A stretch of 64,000 nucleotides of DNA from positions 160,001 to 224,000 of the forward strand of contig CAWGYD010000008.1 in NCBI GenBank assembly GCA_963826785.1, given 5' to 3'. Shown here piece after piece: positions 49,230 through 59,600 of the stretch. Made by a program: the position numbers and the translations under genes. Each line of letters opens with the position of its first letter. Positions within the stretch are counted from its first letter, which is position 1. Source of the DNA: an uncultured delta proteobacterium (lineage in GTDB: Bacteria; Desulfobacterota; Desulfobacteria; Desulfobacterales; Desulfosalsimonadaceae). The notes under the pieces are model-generated. The model ran no database searches. It was not told the origin of the DNA and saw only the letters and a program-made list of their open reading frames with translations.

Positions 49230-51117
49230 GTGTTTGAACGAAAACAATTTTAATCAATAAAAAGCGATGGCTATATATTTAGTATGGTATCAAGAATTTT
49301 AAAAAAATTGTCACTTATTCGATTTTTTCACTTGATTTTTATCTTGTACTAATTGTATAATATCCTGAATTTTTTATTTAAAATCTTATAATCCGGAATC
49401 CGGTGAAACGCTTCCAATCAAAAATCTTCAGGAAAAAATATGCGAAGAGTTATCGACCCCCAAATGAAAATCGGTGAAAAAGCAATCGCCAGCATCAAAT
49501 TTGATCTCCGCTGCCGGGACGAAATCCCCAAACTGCTTCGCGGGTTGCAGGCCATATACTGCAACCGGGAACTGCGCGAAAAGGTCTTCGCCGTTCTCAC
49601 TGAGATCATCCCGGATCATATCGATCCCAACAATGGCCGCAAGGGCATGGATCTGTGGAAAATATTCGTCCTGGGCACCCTGCGGCTCAACTGCGACTGG
49701 GATCATGATAAACTCCATGACATCGCCAATAATCACAAAACACTCCGGCAGATGCTCGGCCATGGCACAATGGATGCCGATTATCAGTATTCACTGCAAA
49801 CCCTCAAGGAGAATATCTCCTTGTTTACACCGGAGGTGTTGGACAAAATCAATCAGCTCGTTGTCCAGTACGGTCATCAGTTGGCCGGTAAAAAAAAAGA
49901 TCGAAAATTGGCCGGAAGCTGTGATTCTTTCGTCGTTGAAACCGATGTTCATTATCCAACTGATATTAATCTACTTTTTGATGCCATGCGAAAAATGATC
50001 ACGCTGATCATGCGTATCTGCGAACATATGGAGATTACTGATTGGCGCCAGGGCGAACACCATATTCGTAAAGCAAAAAAATTGTATCGAAAAGCCCAAC
50101 GGTTAAAACACTCCTCATCAAAAGATAAGACCAAAAAGGCCGAAAGGGCACAACTGATCATTGATGCTCACAATGAGTACATCAATCTGGCCCGCTTTTA
50201 TGTTGATAAAATTAGGCAATCGTTCACTTTATTGCTGACATCCAATATCCTCACCCAAATGAAAATAGCTGAAGTAAAAGATTATATGGTTCATGCCGAA
50301 AGGCAGATCGATCAGATCTGCAGAAGAGTTGTTCAAGGCGAAACGATCCCCCATCACGAAAAGGTGTTCTCACTCTTTGAGCAACACACCGAATGGATCA
50401 GCAAAGGCAAAGCCGGTGTTCCGGTGGAACTCGGTTTAAAGGTTTGCATTGTCAAAGATCAATACAATTTCATTTTGCATCATCATGTGATGCAAAATGA
50501 AACCGACGACAAAATCGTCGTTTCCATTATCAAAGAAACGCAGCGCAGATTTGCCGATTTTAAAAATTGCAGTTTCGACAAAGGTTTTCATAGCCCAAAC
50601 AATCAGAAAGAATTGGCAATTCTGCTGGACAGAGCCGTGCTTCCCAGAAAGGGGAGGCTTTCGGCTATTAATAAAGAAATCGAGAACTCCGAAGAATTTA
50701 AAAAAGCGAAAAGAAAGCATTCGGCAGTTGAATCCTCGATCAATGCACTGGGCAATCACGGACTGGACAGGTGCCGGGACCATGGCATTGAAGGTTTCAA
50801 ACGCTATGTCGCCTTGGCCGTTGTAGCACGCAATATTCAGCTCATCGGTCATATGTTACAACAAAAAGAAGTCACTCGGTTGCGCCGCCAGGAAAAGAGA
50901 GAACGAAAAGCAGCTTAAACAAGCGATATTTGAGGCACCGGCAGGATACCTGCGTTCAAAAATAAGAAATGGGCCGAAAATCATAGCTTTTTGCGATATT
51001 GAAAATAGTTTTGACCAATGCCGCTTGGATCTCATGCTGAATTTCCCCTAGCCGGCACAAAAATCCGGCGAAATTTTCTGCCGGAAAAATTAAAAATCCG
51101 GGTTTTCGTTCGGGCAC
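49230..51117 (+). mobile_element. complete insertion sequence (ISNCY/ISDol1-like)
   Basis: IRL GTGTTTGAACGAAAAC and IRR (reverse complement) GTGCCCGAACGAAAAC match at 13/16; direct repeat TAATTA at 49224-49229 and 51118-51123. Confidence 0.9.
49440..50918 (+). CDS. DDE transposase
   Basis: DSFVVETDVHYPTD, KGKAGVPVELG, SFDKGF and HSAVES.IN motifs. Confidence 0.93.
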   Translation: MRRVIDPQMKIGEKAIASIKFDLRCRDEIPKLLRGLQAIYCNRELREKVFAVLTEIIPDHIDPNNGRKGMDLWKIFVLGTLRLNCDWDHDKLHDIANNHKTLRQMLGHGTMDADYQYSLQTLKENISLFTPEVLDKINQLVVQYGHQLAGKKKDRKLAGSCDSFVVETDVHYPTDINLLFDAMRKMITLIMRICEHMEITDWRQGEHHIRKAKKLYRKAQRLKHSSSKDKTKKAERAQLIIDAHNEYINLARFYVDKIRQSFTLLLTSNILTQMKIAEVKDYMVHAERQIDQICRRVVQGETIPHHEKVFSLFEQHTEWISKGKAGVPVELGLKVCIVKDQYNFILHHHVMQNETDDKIVVSIIKETQRRFADFKNCSFDKGFHSPNNQKELAILLDRAVLPRKGRLSAINKEIENSEEFKKAKRKHSAVESSINALGNHGLDRCRDHGIEGFKRYVALAVVARNIQLIGHMLQQKEVTRLRRQEKRERKAA

Positions 51118-51136: not shown

Positions 51137-51754
51137 TTATCCGCCCATACGAATAAGCCCCACATATTTCCCCACGATCCTGACCTTCTTCCGCCCCCCG
51201 CCCTTCAATATGATCGGCGGGTAATCCTTGTTCGCCGAGTGCAGTTCAAGGACGCCCTTTTTCCGGCGGATTATTTTCAGCGTCGCCTCGGGCAGCATTT
51301 CATCCACAATGACTGCAGCAATGGCGCCGTTATCCACATCATCACGCGGTGCGATCACCGCCAGATCGCCCTCCTGGATATGCGCTTCGATCATGGAATC
51401 GCCAACCACCCGCACGGCAAAACAGGCCTCGTGGCCGTACAAAGCGGGATCAATGGGAAGATAAGCTTCAACATGATCAAAGACGCCGATGGGCGTTCCC
51501 GCTGCGATGCGCCCGGCCAGGGGAATGCATTTCGACTCCACAGCAACGGCTGTCGGCCGCCATGACCGTTTTTTACCGCGAATAGATTCAATAAACCCCT
51601 TCTCAATCAACACATGCAAGATCCGGTGCACCCCCGCGGGCCCCTTGAGCTCAAAATGCTCGCAGATCTCCCGCACGGTCGGGGCCATGCCGGTTTCCTG
51701 GTGGTGATGGAGAATGTATTCATATACACTCAACTGTCTGTCGGTTAATTTCAT
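51137..51754 (-). CDS. lexA: LexA repressor (205 aa)
   Basis: MKLTDRQ...PTVREI winged HTH, IAAG cleavage site, GDSM catalytic Ser and ATLK catalytic Lys. Confidence 0.93.
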   Translation of the reverse strand: MKLTDRQLSVYEYILHHHQETGMAPTVREICEHFELKGPAGVHRILHVLIEKGFIESIRGKKRSWRPTAVAVESKCIPLAGRIAAGTPIGVFDHVEAYLPIDPALYGHEACFAVRVVGDSMIEAHIQEGDLAVIAPRDDVDNGAIAAVIVDEMLPEATLKIIRRKKGVLELHSANKDYPPIILKGGGRKKVRIVGKYVGLIRMGG

Positions 51755-52203
51755 GAGATGCCTTTTACTCTCAGGCGCACACATTCCATGACCCGCAGCC
51801 CGGCCCCATACATGAGCTGCCCCATCAGCCAGCTCCTGCCGTCGAGTTGATTTAGAATTTCCCGGACTTCCGGTTTTGAATATACGACCGGCAGCCTTCT
51901 GGGCTTTTTCGCGCGGACCACGTCCTCTATCAGATTAAATTCCTGCTTCAACACTTCCCGGTACAAAAACAGCAGTGCATTGAAAGCCTGATTTTGCGTT
52001 GAGGCGGCAACTTTTCGATTTACCGCCAAATCAGTCAGAAATTGACTGATTTCCTTTTCGCCCATTTCTTTTGGGTGACGTTTATCATGATACAGAATAT
52101 ACCGCCTTATCCATCCGACATAGGTTTCCTCTGTTCTGATACTGTAGTGCTTCAAGCGAATGCGATTGCGTACCTGATCCAGAAGTTTTGGCGAATTTGA
52201 CAT
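51751..52203 (-). pseudogene. intI: integron integrase, C-terminally truncated (150 aa)
   Basis: KLLDQVR..IRLKHYS.RTE..Y, RHP.EMG, VAASTQNQA.NALLFLY, RLPVV and LMYGAGLR.MEC.RLRVK, then a stop. No HxxR or catalytic Tyr region. GAGG RBS. Confidence 0.92.
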
Positions 52204-52261
52204 AAAATACCTCTTTTGATGGATAAGTATAAGTGATATGATCAAACCAAAAATCAAAAAG

Positions 52262-52275
52262 TGAACATTTGTTCA
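52262..52275. promoter_or_regulatory. putative LexA (SOS) box
   Basis: TGAAC-ATTT-GTTCA palindrome (GAAC-N4-GTTC type), about 60 bp upstream of the intI ATG. Confidence 0.65.
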
Positions 52276-52285
52276 TATGGCTTAT

Positions 52286-52315
52286 AAGGTATCATATTGA
52301 AAAATGTGATATCAA
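52286..52315 (-). promoter_or_regulatory. putative Pint promoter
   Basis: Minus-strand TTGATA-N18-TACCTT with a TGn extension, just upstream of the palindrome. Confidence 0.4.
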
Positions 52316-52404
52316 GAACTTTTTCTTCATATAACCACTCTGAGGGGTGATATTGACCCAATTCGCTCGATATGAAGATTTCGTAAGCAAATTGGCTGTA
52401 AAAT

Positions 52405-52439
52405 AAAACAGCGATTAGTACATATATTTCTTGTTAGGG
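52405..52439 (+). other. attI site (core GTTAGGG at 52433)
   Basis: GTTRRRY-like core upstream of the divergent intI; complementary to CCCTAAC at the end of cassette 1. Confidence 0.7.
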
Positions 52440-52443
52440 CTCA

Positions 52444-52833
52444 ACGTTAAAAGAATCAACGTGTCAGAAATGCAAAGCAGCTCTGTTCGAAGACAACGCC
52501 GAGATTCGTCAGCCTTGTCCTGTTTGTGACTGTATGACCCGCTCCTCTGTTGAATCGCTGCACGATACGATTGTGGCTCTTGACCATATGCGCATGAAAG
52601 GAAGGCACGCTGATAATAAACGCCCCTATTTTGATGCTCGTACTGGCGCCAGCTATTACCGCAAGGACGGTGAATGCCATCTTTACCGACTTATCGACCG
52701 TGATAATGATCGTTACGTCGAGACGATAAAGCGCCTGAGCACTGGAGAAATCATTTATCACGTAGATGAACCGCTTTCAAAACACATCGGCCACGGCAGC
52801 GCGAAATCCTTAAACGAGTCGGTGGAGCCCTAA
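52444..52833 (+). CDS. cassette 1: zinc-ribbon hypothetical protein
   Basis: Open frame upstream of ATG 52534 encodes CQKC...CPVC; C-terminal DEPLSKHIGHGSAK; the stop codon lies within attC. Confidence 0.65.
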   Translation, partial: TLKESTCQKCKAALFEDNAEIRQPCPVCDCMTRSSVESLHDTIVALDHMRMKGRHADNKRPYFDARTGASYYRKDGECHLYRLIDRDNDRYVETIKRLSTGEIIYHVDEPLSKHIGHGSAKSLNESVEP

Positions 52834-52955
52834 CCAGAAAGCTCAAGGGGCAGCCAGGGCAGTCGGGTTTTGAAAATTTGGGGGAAATTGAACATTAACC
52901 ATCTTTAAGACAAGTCAGTGGAAGCCCTGGCCCCCATTGGCTGCCGCCGTTAGCA
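52827..52955 (+). other. attC site 1
   Basis: GCCCTAAC ... GCCAGGGC/GCCCTGGC inverted arms ... GTTAGCA. Confidence 0.75.
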
Positions 52956-53949: not shown

Positions 53950-54021
53950 GCCTAAGCAAATGCACACGGACGCCGGACTCCGCTGCGCTCCGTTTGCTGC
54001 CGGTGATTTGCAACGTTAGGG
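53950..54021 (+). other. attC site 2 (damaged R'' box)
   Basis: GCCTAA-GCAAATGCAC...GTGATTTGC-AACGTTAGGG. Confidence 0.78.
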
Positions 54022-54041: not shown

Positions 54042-54961
54042 ATGCCGCGCTACTGGGTCATGGCTCCCGTTGAGTCGAAGCCGTCAGGTCTGTTCGACGC
54101 AGTATGGCAATTCGACCGTGACCAGAACGTGATATCTATCGGCTGGAGCCAACTTGGCGATATCACGGGCATGACCAGTGAAGAATTGGCCCAGGCTGTC
54201 GCAGCATCATATCCAGACAAGCCGCCACAGACCAAGGGGCTATACACAAACATGTTGTGGGCGTTCTACCACGAGATGCTTCCCGGTGACTACGTGATAG
54301 CACGGCGCGGCCGGAAGACCCTTGCCGGTGTGGGCAGGTTCCCGGACCCGCCGCATACGCGCCGGGCCGGAACTCGCCCGTCAATCATCCGGGGTTCATC
54401 GACGTTGCTTGGCAAGAGCAGCCCCGTGACAAGACGTTTCCCACGATTGTCTTTCCCATGCATACACTGGCGGAGTTTTCGGGGGAGCAATTCCGCAGCA
54501 TTGTAGAGGGCTCTGGCCCTCCCATTGCCCCACCGGGTGACGAACCCGAAGTCGAAGACCCGAGCGAGTTCGTTCTGGAGAAATATCTTGAAGACTTCAT
54601 CGTCAGTAACTTCGCGACGATCTTCAAAGGACACTTGCGGATTTTCGAAGATGCGGAAGGGAACGACGGTCAGCAGTATGCGACCGACATCGGCCCCATC
54701 GACATACTGGCAGTCGATGCACAGTCCAAAGCATTAGTCGTGATTGAGCTGAAGAAGGGACGGCCCTCCGACAGAGTCGTCGGGCAGATCCTACGGTACA
54801 TGGGATGGGTGAAGAGGAATCTGTGTTCTAATGGACAGATGGTGAAGGGGTTGATCATCTGTCGTGACCACGATCCAAAACTGAGCTATGCCCTGGAAAT
54901 GACAAACAACATCGACGTGCGATACTACAATGTGTCGTTCAAATTGAGAGAGAATCCCTAA
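54042..54961 (+). CDS. cassette 3: NucS/DUF91-like PD-(D/E)XK endonuclease with N-terminal sensor-like domain; one frameshift near 54340
   Basis: EKYLEDF, IDILA, IELKKG and VGQILRYMGWV motifs; N-terminal YW...ISIGW...GDYVIA. Confidence 0.8.
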
Positions 54962-55044
54962 CCAGAGCGTGGAGCGCGACTTCGGGCTAGCCGCGCCGCT
55001 ACGCTCTGCGGCCAACCCGAAGCGGCTCACGCTCGACGTTATGC
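54954..55044 (+). other. attC site 3
   Basis: ATCCCTAAC (complement of the cassette start GTTAGGGAT), GAGCGTGGAGC/GCTCACGCTC arms with a bulged base, and GTTATGC. Confidence 0.9.
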
Positions 55045-55069: not shown

Positions 55070-56296
55070 ATGGCAGCAGAAGTTCAGAGCACGATCAAAC
55101 CATTAATTATGCAATTTTTAAATGAGTTAATGAAGAATTATTGGGGACCTCTTTATCATCATATTAAAAATAATTCAGAGTTGATGCTCACAGTTCCAGG
55201 GTTTTTGTTAGATCTTGAGAAAATAATTGTATTTGTCGGAAGAACACATATCGCAGTAGAATATATAGGCTCTGAAGTGTTGCAAGAGCTCAAGTCATTA
55301 GGGGAACTCGAAGTGCAATATCATGATTATTCTGTAAAAGACTGTAATCTCCTTGAGCAAGTCATTGGTTTCGAATATGACTCGACTTCAAACGTTCGAA
55401 TGCAGCTAACACCTGTAAGTGTTGATTATCTTTTCCCGACCAACCGTGGGTGGGATAAACTTTCTGAATTGGGCTGGAATTTTGCAGCACAAAATAGCGT
55501 CATGGGATTCAATATACCTTGTCCAGAACCTATTCCAGGTAAGTTTCATAGAATTGTTAATGGAATGTTTTTTGACGCTGATGAATCGGGGTTGAAATCA
55601 AGGCATATTAAATGGTTAGACTTTTTTCCTATCCTGTTTGATGGGAGTGATACAGAGTTTGATACCATCTCTTTTAGCTTAGAAAAAATAAAAAATTTAG
55701 TAGAGCAAGATGCAAATTACCAATATCCACTTCCTGATGACTATAAGTTCAAACAACTACCAAAGATAAATCGTTTTTTAGAATTATGGGGAAATTCCAA
55801 TAGCACAGAAACGGATATCACTACTTTTTTGGCAAAAGAAGAGAATGAATTTATCCTAACCATGAAATTCGGGGCAAAAGAAATTTATCCTGAGTTGACC
55901 TGTGAATGGCAGAGCACTGAAAGGGATGACATAAGGCCAGATTTCTTTGTTGTGCAGCCAAATGGTTATGCTGACATCGTTGAATTCAAACTTCCCAATA
56001 TTAATAAAAATTTTATCGTTGGAAGTAAAAACAGGGAAACTTTTTCTGCATGGCTAAATTCATATATATCTCAGACGCGTGTTTATAGAACTTATTTCGA
56101 TGACCCGAATAATAGAAAATGGTTCGAAGATAAATATGGCTTTAAAGTTCACAACCCGCGCCGATGGCTTGTGGTAGGCCGCAGAAATGATTTTGACTCT
56201 GACATATGGAGGGAAATCATAGCAGATTATAAAGACATAGAGATATTAACTTTTGATGATTTAATCGATGGTGTAGTTGTTCAATTTTACAAGTAA
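55070..56296 (+). CDS. cassette 4: Shedu (DUF4263)-like nuclease
   Basis: C-terminal RPDFF...IVEFK.P, QTRVY (QxxxY), VVGRR and LTFDDL motifs; AT-rich; GAGG RBS. Confidence 0.8.
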   Translation: MAAEVQSTIKPLIMQFLNELMKNYWGPLYHHIKNNSELMLTVPGFLLDLEKIIVFVGRTHIAVEYIGSEVLQELKSLGELEVQYHDYSVKDCNLLEQVIGFEYDSTSNVRMQLTPVSVDYLFPTNRGWDKLSELGWNFAAQNSVMGFNIPCPEPIPGKFHRIVNGMFFDADESGLKSRHIKWLDFFPILFDGSDTEFDTISFSLEKIKNLVEQDANYQYPLPDDYKFKQLPKINRFLELWGNSNSTETDITTFLAKEENEFILTMKFGAKEIYPELTCEWQSTERDDIRPDFFVVQPNGYADIVEFKLPNINKNFIVGSKNRETFSAWLNSYISQTRVYRTYFDDPNNRKWFEDKYGFKVHNPRRWLVVGRRNDFDSDIWREIIADYKDIEILTFDDLIDGVVVQFYK

Positions 56297-56314: not shown

Positions 56315-56402
56315 GCATAACCTGCGGCTCCACGCGACCGCGGGCCAGCGCAGTCATTTATCATAGGGCATAGGCGCGGTCGCGTGAGCCTATGCGTTGG
56401 CA
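56315..56402 (+). other. attC site 4
   Basis: GCATAAC, GGCTCCACGCGACCGCG/CGCGGTCGCGTGAGCC arms with a bulge, and GTTGGCA. Confidence 0.9.
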
Positions 56403-57426: not shown

Positions 57427-57500
57427 GCCCAACAAGGCAAATTAACTCGGATGCAAACTCCGCTGCACTCCATTTGCACCGGTTATTTGCGACGTTATCA
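57427..57500 (+). other. attC site 5
   Basis: GCCCAAC, GCAAATTAAC/GTTATTTGC arms, TGCAAA/TTTGCA inner stem, and GTTATCA. Confidence 0.85.
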
Positions 57501-57547: not shown

Positions 57548-57869
57548 TTGAAAATCTTGATTTCCGCATACGAACAGGCGGAGTTGATAAGGAAGCTGAT
57601 TGCCGGAAGAGTTGCCGTTTTCTCCAACATCCCTGTCCGTTTTAAAGGAAATCATGTTCATCAAGCAGACTGGCCGCGGGATTTTATACGGCAAGACAGG
57701 ATCGGGGGCCGATGATCACGGGGCTTTCGTCCTGGGATGGTTTGTCGGCTTCGTCATCAGCAATGACGATGCATATTCTTTCGCGTGCATTGCGGAAGGA
57801 GAAAATGTCATGGGCACGGACGTCCGCGGCATGGTTGAAATTATTCTGGAGAAACAGGGATTCCTGTAG
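57548..57869 (+). pseudogene. cassette 6: C-terminal remnant of a class D beta-lactamase-like gene
   Basis: ISAYEQAELIRKL (other frame), then LPFS, LYGKTG and GWFVGFV; no SxxK or SxV half. Confidence 0.75.
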
Positions 57870-59002: not shown

Positions 59003-59106
59003 GGGATCGACCCTGATTTTGGCATGGGGGCATGCCTGGATGACTTTTAAGGACTTAACTTCGGCAATCAGAGTAAGCGACTTTTTTTTTGTTATCCGCA
59101 GGTCCG

Positions 59107-59466
59107 ACACCCCCCTTGGTCCCCCCTCGCAGGGGGGAATGGCATTCGTATTCCGCAAAGGTGGACAGTGATTCCCTTGGTTCCCTTGGCAGGGGGGAAT
59201 AAAAATGGCGGTCCCCCTGGAGGCGGGCGGTCGGACACCCCCCTGCGCCCCCCTCAAGGGGGGAATGAGGGAAGGGCTGCCCCCCTCGATCGCTTTTCTA
59301 TCCCCCCTCGATCGCTTTCTCTATCCCCCCTCGATCGCTTTTCTATCCCCCCTCGATCGCTTTTCTATCCTTCCTCGATCGCTTTTCTATCCTTCCTCGA
59401 TCGCTTTTATCCTTCCTCGAGAATACGCTTTCCAATTCCCCCCTCGAGGGGGGCCAGGGGGGTGTA
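59107..59466. repeat. REP/MITE-like family B cluster with an internal ~21-bp tandem repeat
   Basis: ACACCCCCCTGCGCCCCCCTCAAGGGGGGA identical to the 44551 copy; six CCTCGATCGCTTT-based units at 59281-59420; closing CAATTCCCCCCTCGAGGGGGGCCAGGGGGGTGT. Confidence 0.88.
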
Positions 59467-59600
59467 CTGGCGGCGGCCGTTAGGATTAAAAAGTTGTTTA
59501 CTGCAAAAGCACCGCGCAGCGGGGTGGAGCGCTTCTAAAAAAGCGCGGATCGGTAAATTCCATTATACGGACAGACGATCTTGCCCCATCACGGGTACCC

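Follow-up and report, generated by a model that had tools for sequence, protein, structure and literature searches.

A predicted intI-lexA operon with a truncated integron integrase in an uncultured member of the Desulfobacterales

Integrons are known in which the integrase gene is repressed by LexA, such as those carrying the class 1 IntI1 and the Vibrio IntIA, and these combine an intI/attI/attC platform with a palindromic LexA-type operator of the form CTGT-N8-ACAG on which the LexA of the host acts in trans (PMC3108266, PMC8946536). The parts of PMC8946536 and PMC8876359 available here describe this control in trans and mention no lexA gene in cis. In the accessible part of PMC3108266, 15 motifs were sought from -100 to +50, and only the CTGT-N8-ACAG type was found at integrase promoters; its supplements may list some of the integrases treated below. 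The same paper did not settle the control of integrons in hosts with a LexA that recognises another motif, and reported that 43-46% of integrases are inactive and that inactivation correlates with loss of the LexA box. Integrase activity has been described as costly, with the cost relieved by inactivation (PMC3510236). A different operator, CGAAC-N4-GTTCG, is the Gram-positive SOS box of Bacillus subtilis and Staphylococcus aureus (PMC9578287, Table 1), and duplication of lexA with divergence of its motif has also been described (PMC8565304).

In this study, a stretch of 64,000 nucleotides from an uncultured delta proteobacterium (the window) was analysed, in which a truncated integron integrase gene is followed directly by lexA. 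The locus is quite probably an autoregulated, damage-inducible intI-lexA operon whose integrase is dead in this genome. It resembles the IntI1 and Vibrio IntIA integrons in its platform and in its palindromic LexA-type operator, but here lexA lies in cis and overlaps intI, and the operator is GAAC-N4-GTTC (compare PMC3108266, PMC8946536). This core is shared with the Gram-positive SOS box, as had been claimed in a preliminary description of this DNA, whereas the flanks are mostly T/A instead of C/G, the host is of Desulfobacterales type and no regulon beyond the operon was found. As in the lexA-imuA-imuB-dnaE2 cassettes (PMC9578287), LexA is encoded in the operon that is predicted to be its target, but the partner here is intI, upstream of lexA, and no same-strand dnaE2 was found after it. 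As with lambda CI and SXT SetR (PMC9578287), the element would encode its own damage-sensing switch, although this switch is a true LexA on an integron and not a phage or ICE repressor. Dead integrases beside retained cassette arrays have been described (PMC3510236, PMC3108266); those found here are mostly inactivated by large internal deletions ending shortly ahead of the downstream lexA, and, in contrast to the dead integrases associated with box loss in PMC3108266, they keep both the box and lexA. No intI-lexA operon was found in the literature searched, largely outside subscription journals, in keeping with the earlier suggestion of an undescribed system. The deletion series, an integrase-led control and a lexA-dnaE2 sister group are added here.

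The locus has a gene for an integron-type tyrosine recombinase, an attI site beside the 5' end of intI and an attC-bounded cassette array (Table 1), which together identify it as an integron; two attC hairpins were found by script and three by eye and folding. The integrase fragment matches positions 1-143 of the 315 in TIGR02249 (E 1.5e-57; being truncated, it falls short of the whole-protein cut-off) and carries the SAM-like domain PF13495, and its best PDB match is 2a3v, aligned over residues 6-147 of 320. The complete catalytic set of an integron integrase is R-K-H-R-H-Y; only the first Arg, presumably R137, is left in the fragment, and the full set is present in seven relatives. LexA scores 149.5 bits against TIGR00498 (cut-off 110.95), and its N-terminal winged helix (PF01726) and S24 peptidase domain (PF00717) are both over cut-off. 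The Ala-Gly cleavage site, the Ser and the Lys are retained in 32 of 33 aligned LexAs of the group defined below. E. coli LexA is the top PDB match of the DNA-binding domain, a match that is uninformative on box type, and recA is present in the genome. The preliminary description, made from the letters of the DNA, had reported a 150-aa integrase ending in LRVKGIS and a stop, an ATGA shared with lexA at 51751-51754, an AAAGG ribosome-binding-like site in the last intI codons, an intact LexA, the absence of the catalytic HxxR/Tyr region and a TGAAC-N4-GTTCA palindrome ahead of intI. All of these were recovered, with AAAGG 6 nt ahead of the lexA ATG and 58 nt between the upstream palindrome and the intI ATG. 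Further along, positions 57600-57869 hold a C-terminal fragment similar to class D beta-lactamase/BlaR1, far below family cut-offs, at what looks like a decayed array end. G/C-rich palindromes and short repeats lie at 59025-59480, downstream of rsgA, and similar elements match several contigs.

Table 1. Features of the intI-lexA locus and its cassette array (positions in the window)
Feature	Position	Strand	Remarks
ISNCY element	49243..51113	+	ends ~23 nt after the lexA stop; 97.5% copy in the C5 cassette array
lexA, 205 aa	51137..51754	-	A85-G86 cleavage site, S120/K160 intact; integron-linked LexA group
Deletion junction	51745..51765	-	weak RBS-like AAAGG (51765-51761), ATGA overlap (51754-51751), ancestral in-frame stop at 51747-51745
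Truncated integron integrase, 150 aa	51751..52203	-	SAM-like N-terminal domain and presumed first catalytic Arg (R137); deleted beyond ~codon 148
Palindromic operator, predicted LexA box TGAAC-N4-GTTCA	52262..52275	.	10 nt downstream of the predicted -10
Predicted intI-lexA promoter	52286..52315	-	TTGATA, 18 nt, extended -10 TG-n-TACCTT; deduced from conservation across 12 aligned promoters
Predicted cassette promoter Pc, weak	52325..52353	+	back to back with the intI promoter; relatives closer to consensus
attI-like site	52415..52439	+	core GTTAGGG 52433-52439; conservation in 12 aligned promoters ends at GTT
attC 1	52828..52954	+	picked by eye, long hairpin; CCCTAAC complementary to the attI core
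attC 2	53950..54021	+	found by script
Cassette 3: NucS/PDC-S02-like nuclease gene, frameshift-split	54042..54961	+	
attC 3	54956..55044	+	found by script
Cassette 4: intact Shedu (SduA) anti-phage nuclease homologue	55070..56296	+	E 2.4e-206
attC 4	56315..56401	+	picked by eye
attC 5	57427..57499	+	picked by eye; matches attC 2 at 90% over 21 nt

LexA was searched in 61 relatives, in 401 genomes of the class and 401 of the phylum and in two collections, with four duplicate loci removed. In Desulfobacterales-type genomes, 32 loci have an intI sequence immediately ahead of lexA (31 found by tblastn, and a short remnant at L070), so the adjacency is not unique to the window. The integrase is full-length with all five motif checks passed at seven of these loci, cut by contig ends at three and broken at 22. 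In the intact and C-terminally intact members nearest to the window, intI overlaps the start of lexA by 10-13 nt, and in a more distant subgroup the end of intI falls anywhere from 123 nt before to 4 nt past that start. In a quick LexA tree of 110 rows, from quick searches, with moderate supports and with rows below 150 aa left out, all 31 tblastn cases fall in one group of 39 rows (SH-aLRT 84; the group), nested in a group of 45 rows (SH-aLRT 94). Among the best 30 IntI matches in 401 genomes, the top ten are all followed by this LexA (the copy at L128 is broken); for matches 11-30, 18 have no LexA in the flanking DNA covered, L133, a member of the IntI group, has none either, and L134 has an unrelated LexA. 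The twenty linked IntIs cluster with L133 in a single group (SH-aLRT 92), whose subgroups resemble those of the LexA tree, and the IntI and LexA groups are associated across at least six families, with downstream neighbours that vary among genera. Since kin are not independent, these counts show one inherited unit and not many origins. The conserved pairing, the parallel subgroups and the conserved box support the earlier idea of an integron with its own LexA in one operon-like unit. A metagenome scan gave one close relative among 21 loci (L155, where the intI end overlaps lexA at a contig edge), and no close plasmid-borne copy was found in a plasmid collection, in which all 148 matching records were below 60% identity (best rows ~36%). 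At L061 (G167), a MITE-like insertion of ~150 nt, bounded by terminal inverted repeats and accompanied by a short target duplication, lies just before lexA.

The palindrome of the window reads TGAACAAATGTTCA. Mononucleotide shuffling of the upstream 250 nt, repeated 20000 times, gave its GAAC-N4-GTTC core in 0.22% of cases. Of the 25 group integrases for which 150 nt or more of upstream DNA is available, 19 have the exact core within 300 nt upstream, vs 0 of 55 other integrases, a comparison in which many controls offer only ~200 nt and some group boxes lie 180-240 nt upstream. The other six group promoters comprise three one-mismatch variants and three with none. With a matrix built from 26 sites, the window site among them, the window box scores 27.3 bits and the next best site in the genome 17.9. 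A strict consensus promoter scan returned 0 sites. The same box is found 26-27 nt before the start of seven of the ten nearest solo LexAs, and eight of the ten are then followed by a dnaE-type polymerase gene. That the box is shared with the solo lexA lineage is the best indirect evidence that it is the operator of this LexA, and the comparison suggests that the integron lexA derives from a lexA-dnaE2 operon, a direction that is put forward as a proposal. Neither imuB nor dnaE2 was found on the same strand after the group lexA genes in the DNA examined, and the ISNCY element follows lexA in the window. The E. coli-type CTGT-N8-ACAG was absent from -100 to +50 of the intI start; an exact copy lies ~200 nt upstream, at 52396-52411, between the predicted Pc and attI, at one of 27 group loci.

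Gene order, overlap, box conservation, co-inheritance, LexA residues and varied junctions are best explained by a model in which a LexA dimer would bind TGAAC-N4-GTTCA just past the -10 and block a promoter shared by both co-transcribed genes. RecA filaments would then trigger self-cleavage of LexA at A85-G86, giving a pulse of integrase together with new repressor that resets the switch. The unit may have arisen when an integron platform was wired into a lexA(-dnaE2) promoter, and a platform wired into its own lexA promoter would be independent of the other LexA of the host. The intI-lexA lineage is thus a possible answer to the question of control in hosts whose LexA reads another motif, as the integron would bring along its repressor and its own operator. 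An unrepressed integrase would be costly, so that alleles losing lexA first would tend to be purged and those losing intI first tolerated, leaving many with a dead intI and a whole lexA. In the window, the 150-aa product would be a relic, and because the catalytic half of the integrase is deleted, the cassette array is probably frozen, barring another integrase that acts in trans.

The deletion in the window runs from ~codon 148 to the lexA start, keeping the ancestral frame and removing the native RBS region. The window LexA begins Met-Lys, a start that converts an ancestral intI Trp codon into TGA, and the older stop persists at +8 to +10. Since intI and lexA ancestrally overlapped by 10 nt and Met-Glu is the start of 28 of the 30 closest LexA homologues, the TGA/ATGA overlap is a derived change and cannot be taken as a conserved design. 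AAAGG coincides with a Gly at a position where 89 of 97 homologues have Asp. Its pairing energy, calculated against an assumed anti-Shine-Dalgarno sequence, is -5.5 kcal/mol, vs -6.6 to -9.1 kcal/mol at most native-type junctions, and this weaker site makes translation of lexA in the window uncertain; folding of the junction RNA is unremarkable (z 0.45). Of the earlier suggestion that a deletion froze the array while keeping lexA expressed, the loss of the catalytic half and the intact lexA are thus borne out, and expression is left uncertain by the RBS-like site. The same truncation point does not recur: the 15 internal deletions have 15 different junctions, and judged from these junctions the truncation in the window is a local loss, private to this genome, and not a design.

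The 15 internal intI deletions (L059 and L094 counted as one; the junctions of the window, L007 and L070 read partly by eye) form a natural series in one genetic context, at least 15 independent events, that bears on the cost of an unrepressed integrase and on the order of gene loss. Their 5' ends are spread over codons 0-200, their 3' ends all lie at codons 285-320, and all stop within ~110 nt of the lexA start; such clustering of the 3' ends has a probability of ~4e-8 given the deletion lengths and uniform placement. As a lexA-led tally favours finding intact lexA, an integrase-led search with the IntI N-terminus was run, giving 101 matches in 86 of 401 genomes; 40 further loci (the short-framed matches not yet covered and 13 long-framed) were placed on the tree, and the remaining long-framed ones were counted as intact. 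Late deletion ends were seen at 9 of 10 group loci vs 3 of 17 other integrons (Fisher p 0.0008), and broken intI at 12 of 21 group loci vs 29 of 76 others, a difference that is not significant (Fisher p 0.14). In a length-limited protein search, 18 of 119 database proteins have an internal deletion with a C-terminal tail. The deletion reaches codon 281 or beyond in 11 of the 13 products of group type and in all five of other type; four proteins have one common microhomology junction between two similar Gly-Lys-Gly stretches. The late ends in all five others and this common junction indicate that a general hot spot accounts for some of the bias. The deletion ends hint at selection to spare lexA. 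Cutting by IntI at GTT was considered as the cause of the deletions and dropped, with ~3 of 15 junctions fitting by eye.

Such selection would be expected if LexA stayed useful after the death of the integrase, through a second job in shielding the back-to-back cassette promoter (e.g. of Shedu) or in repressing sister platforms in trans, with deletions selected to kill the integrase and keep lexA translated. This alternative is tentative, the less favoured of the two accounts, and it draws on the late ends of all 15 deletions and on the control above. It also draws on L206, the only deletion in the group to extend beyond the gene, which joins the same downstream sequence as L128, where lexA is already broken. 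The window deletion fits it in keeping the ancestral frame and in two departures from the consensus, Asp to Gly, which makes AAAGG, and Glu to Lys, which makes ATGA. Against it stand the late ends among the other integrons with their common Gly-Lys-Gly junction, the polar nonsense intI alleles L062 and L068 that retain an intact lexA, and the failure to find a second target, the box being unique in the genome. A comparison of the lexA genes of L059 and L094 after their deletion shows nine synonymous and three non-synonymous codons, but is confounded because the dead intI stub has the same skew. Both loci belong to bin G361, which holds three platform copies: L059 and L094 with the same intI deletion and a whole lexA, and L128 with a whole intI and a broken lexA. 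With three copies in one bin, repression in trans is possible.

The autoregulated operon accounts for the balance of losses in a simpler way. Twenty-two dead intI genes accompany lexA (21 of them intact), vs two intact intI genes without a working lexA, and in a simple model this asymmetry follows because losing the repressor first is costly, so that a second job of LexA is not required. Decay of lexA itself was seen at five loci: it is broken at L128 beside an intact intI, absent at L133, changed from Ser to Ala at L070 and 5'-truncated at L008 and L086. A more far-reaching and somewhat more speculative version of the second-job idea is that these are self-domesticating integrons of sulfate reducers, which took their SOS switch from a lexA-dnaE2 operon, and in which selection would delete the catalytic half of the integrase up to lexA and keep LexA translated since it protects expression of the frozen array (here Shedu) or polices sister platforms. 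If this is true, LexA would be an array-maintenance factor after integrase loss.

The preliminary description had also considered that the retained N-terminal half acts as an att-site binder, that is, a selected, catalytically dead protein that locks the array or competes with integrases. It would gain from the 11 of 15 deletions that keep at least 96 codons, the whole SAM-like domain, and from the fragments themselves, whose pairwise dN/dS is low (0.04-0.12) and whose profile scores resemble those of intact proteins (164 bits for the window, 150-169 for intact ones), with no sign of decay. These dN/dS values mostly reflect the time before each deletion, however, and the undecayed fragments fit recent deletions as well as function; the dN/dS of the window's own fragment is saturated against its nearest relatives. 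Four of the 15 deletions keep at most 53 codons (two lack the N-terminus and two keep ~50), the integrase of L036 is frameshifted within the domain, no junction is common to two genomes, and integrons without lexA often carry comparable N-terminal stubs (17 deletions). Beyond this genome, the 150-aa form itself is known from just one near-identical contig. An att-site binder is therefore improbable.

The autoregulated operon may also be set against the reading that lexA is the ordinary SOS repressor of the host with an integron adjacent by chance, the palindrome binding another regulator (e.g. of TetR type) or nothing. Dyads like TGAAC-N4-GTTCA resemble operators of other families too. An orphan copy of the promoter and attI on contig C1 (826245-826481, L003; 80% identical; it has two or more attC cassettes but neither intI nor lexA) carries a symmetric variant of the box, in which GAAC is changed to GACC in both halves and the palindrome is retained (11.5 bits). 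Other LexA types, 29-33% identical to that of the window, follow a full-length intI at L183 (G140), L184 (G055) and L234 (G279), which suggests separate intI-lexA links and shows that such adjacency can arise repeatedly. Chance adjacency is nonetheless doubtful, since the box tracks the LexA lineage both with and without intI, no box was found in the upstream DNA of recA that was examined, and the IntI and LexA groups co-travel across at least six families while their downstream neighbours differ among genera. Outside the operon, the next best sites in the genome do not precede recognisable SOS genes, degenerate sites aside, and neither do the remaining exact box matches in five other genomes.

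The genome is 87.8% complete, with Desulfobacterales and Desulfobacteraceae MAGs as its closest named relatives, and holds two LexA-domain genes, the second of which, on C1, heads a DUF72-imuB-dnaE2 cassette. Cassettes of the lexA-imuA-imuB-dnaE2 kind carry a dedicated second LexA. The recognition helix and conserved upstream motif of the C1 LexA are unlike those of the window LexA. The only other integron integrase of the genome (C5:189231-190159, L001) lies outside the lexA group and is broken in the assembly where HxxR is expected; it is followed by cassette-like genes, namely a split methyltransferase gene, a toxin-antitoxin-like pair and the ISNCY copy. A second lexA is thus present, as had been thought worth looking for, and no intact integrase was found in the genome. 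Many of the C5 frameshifts may be long-read errors.

Although frameshifts are frequent elsewhere in the genome, as in the C5 integron region, an assembly error at the junction is very improbable, given that the ancestral frame is kept, that 14 comparable deletions occur in other genomes, and that a second contig of 10,117 bp from the protein collection, which may come from the same sample, encodes a 150-aa protein (P0124) with two substitutions and the identical C-terminal end, which argues against a one-off mis-assembly. A LexA (P0003) on a contig of the same length has the same Met-Lys start.

Two further observations concern lexA genes outside the group. A conserved repeat-like motif, TTTACATTGACATTTACA, lies upstream of most of 14 genes of the lexA-DUF72-imuB-dnaE2 type (L002, L042-L055) and may be an uncharacterised LexA operator. 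In Planctomycetota MAGs (L011-L014, L017), lexA is preceded by one to three GAAC-N4-GTTC boxes.
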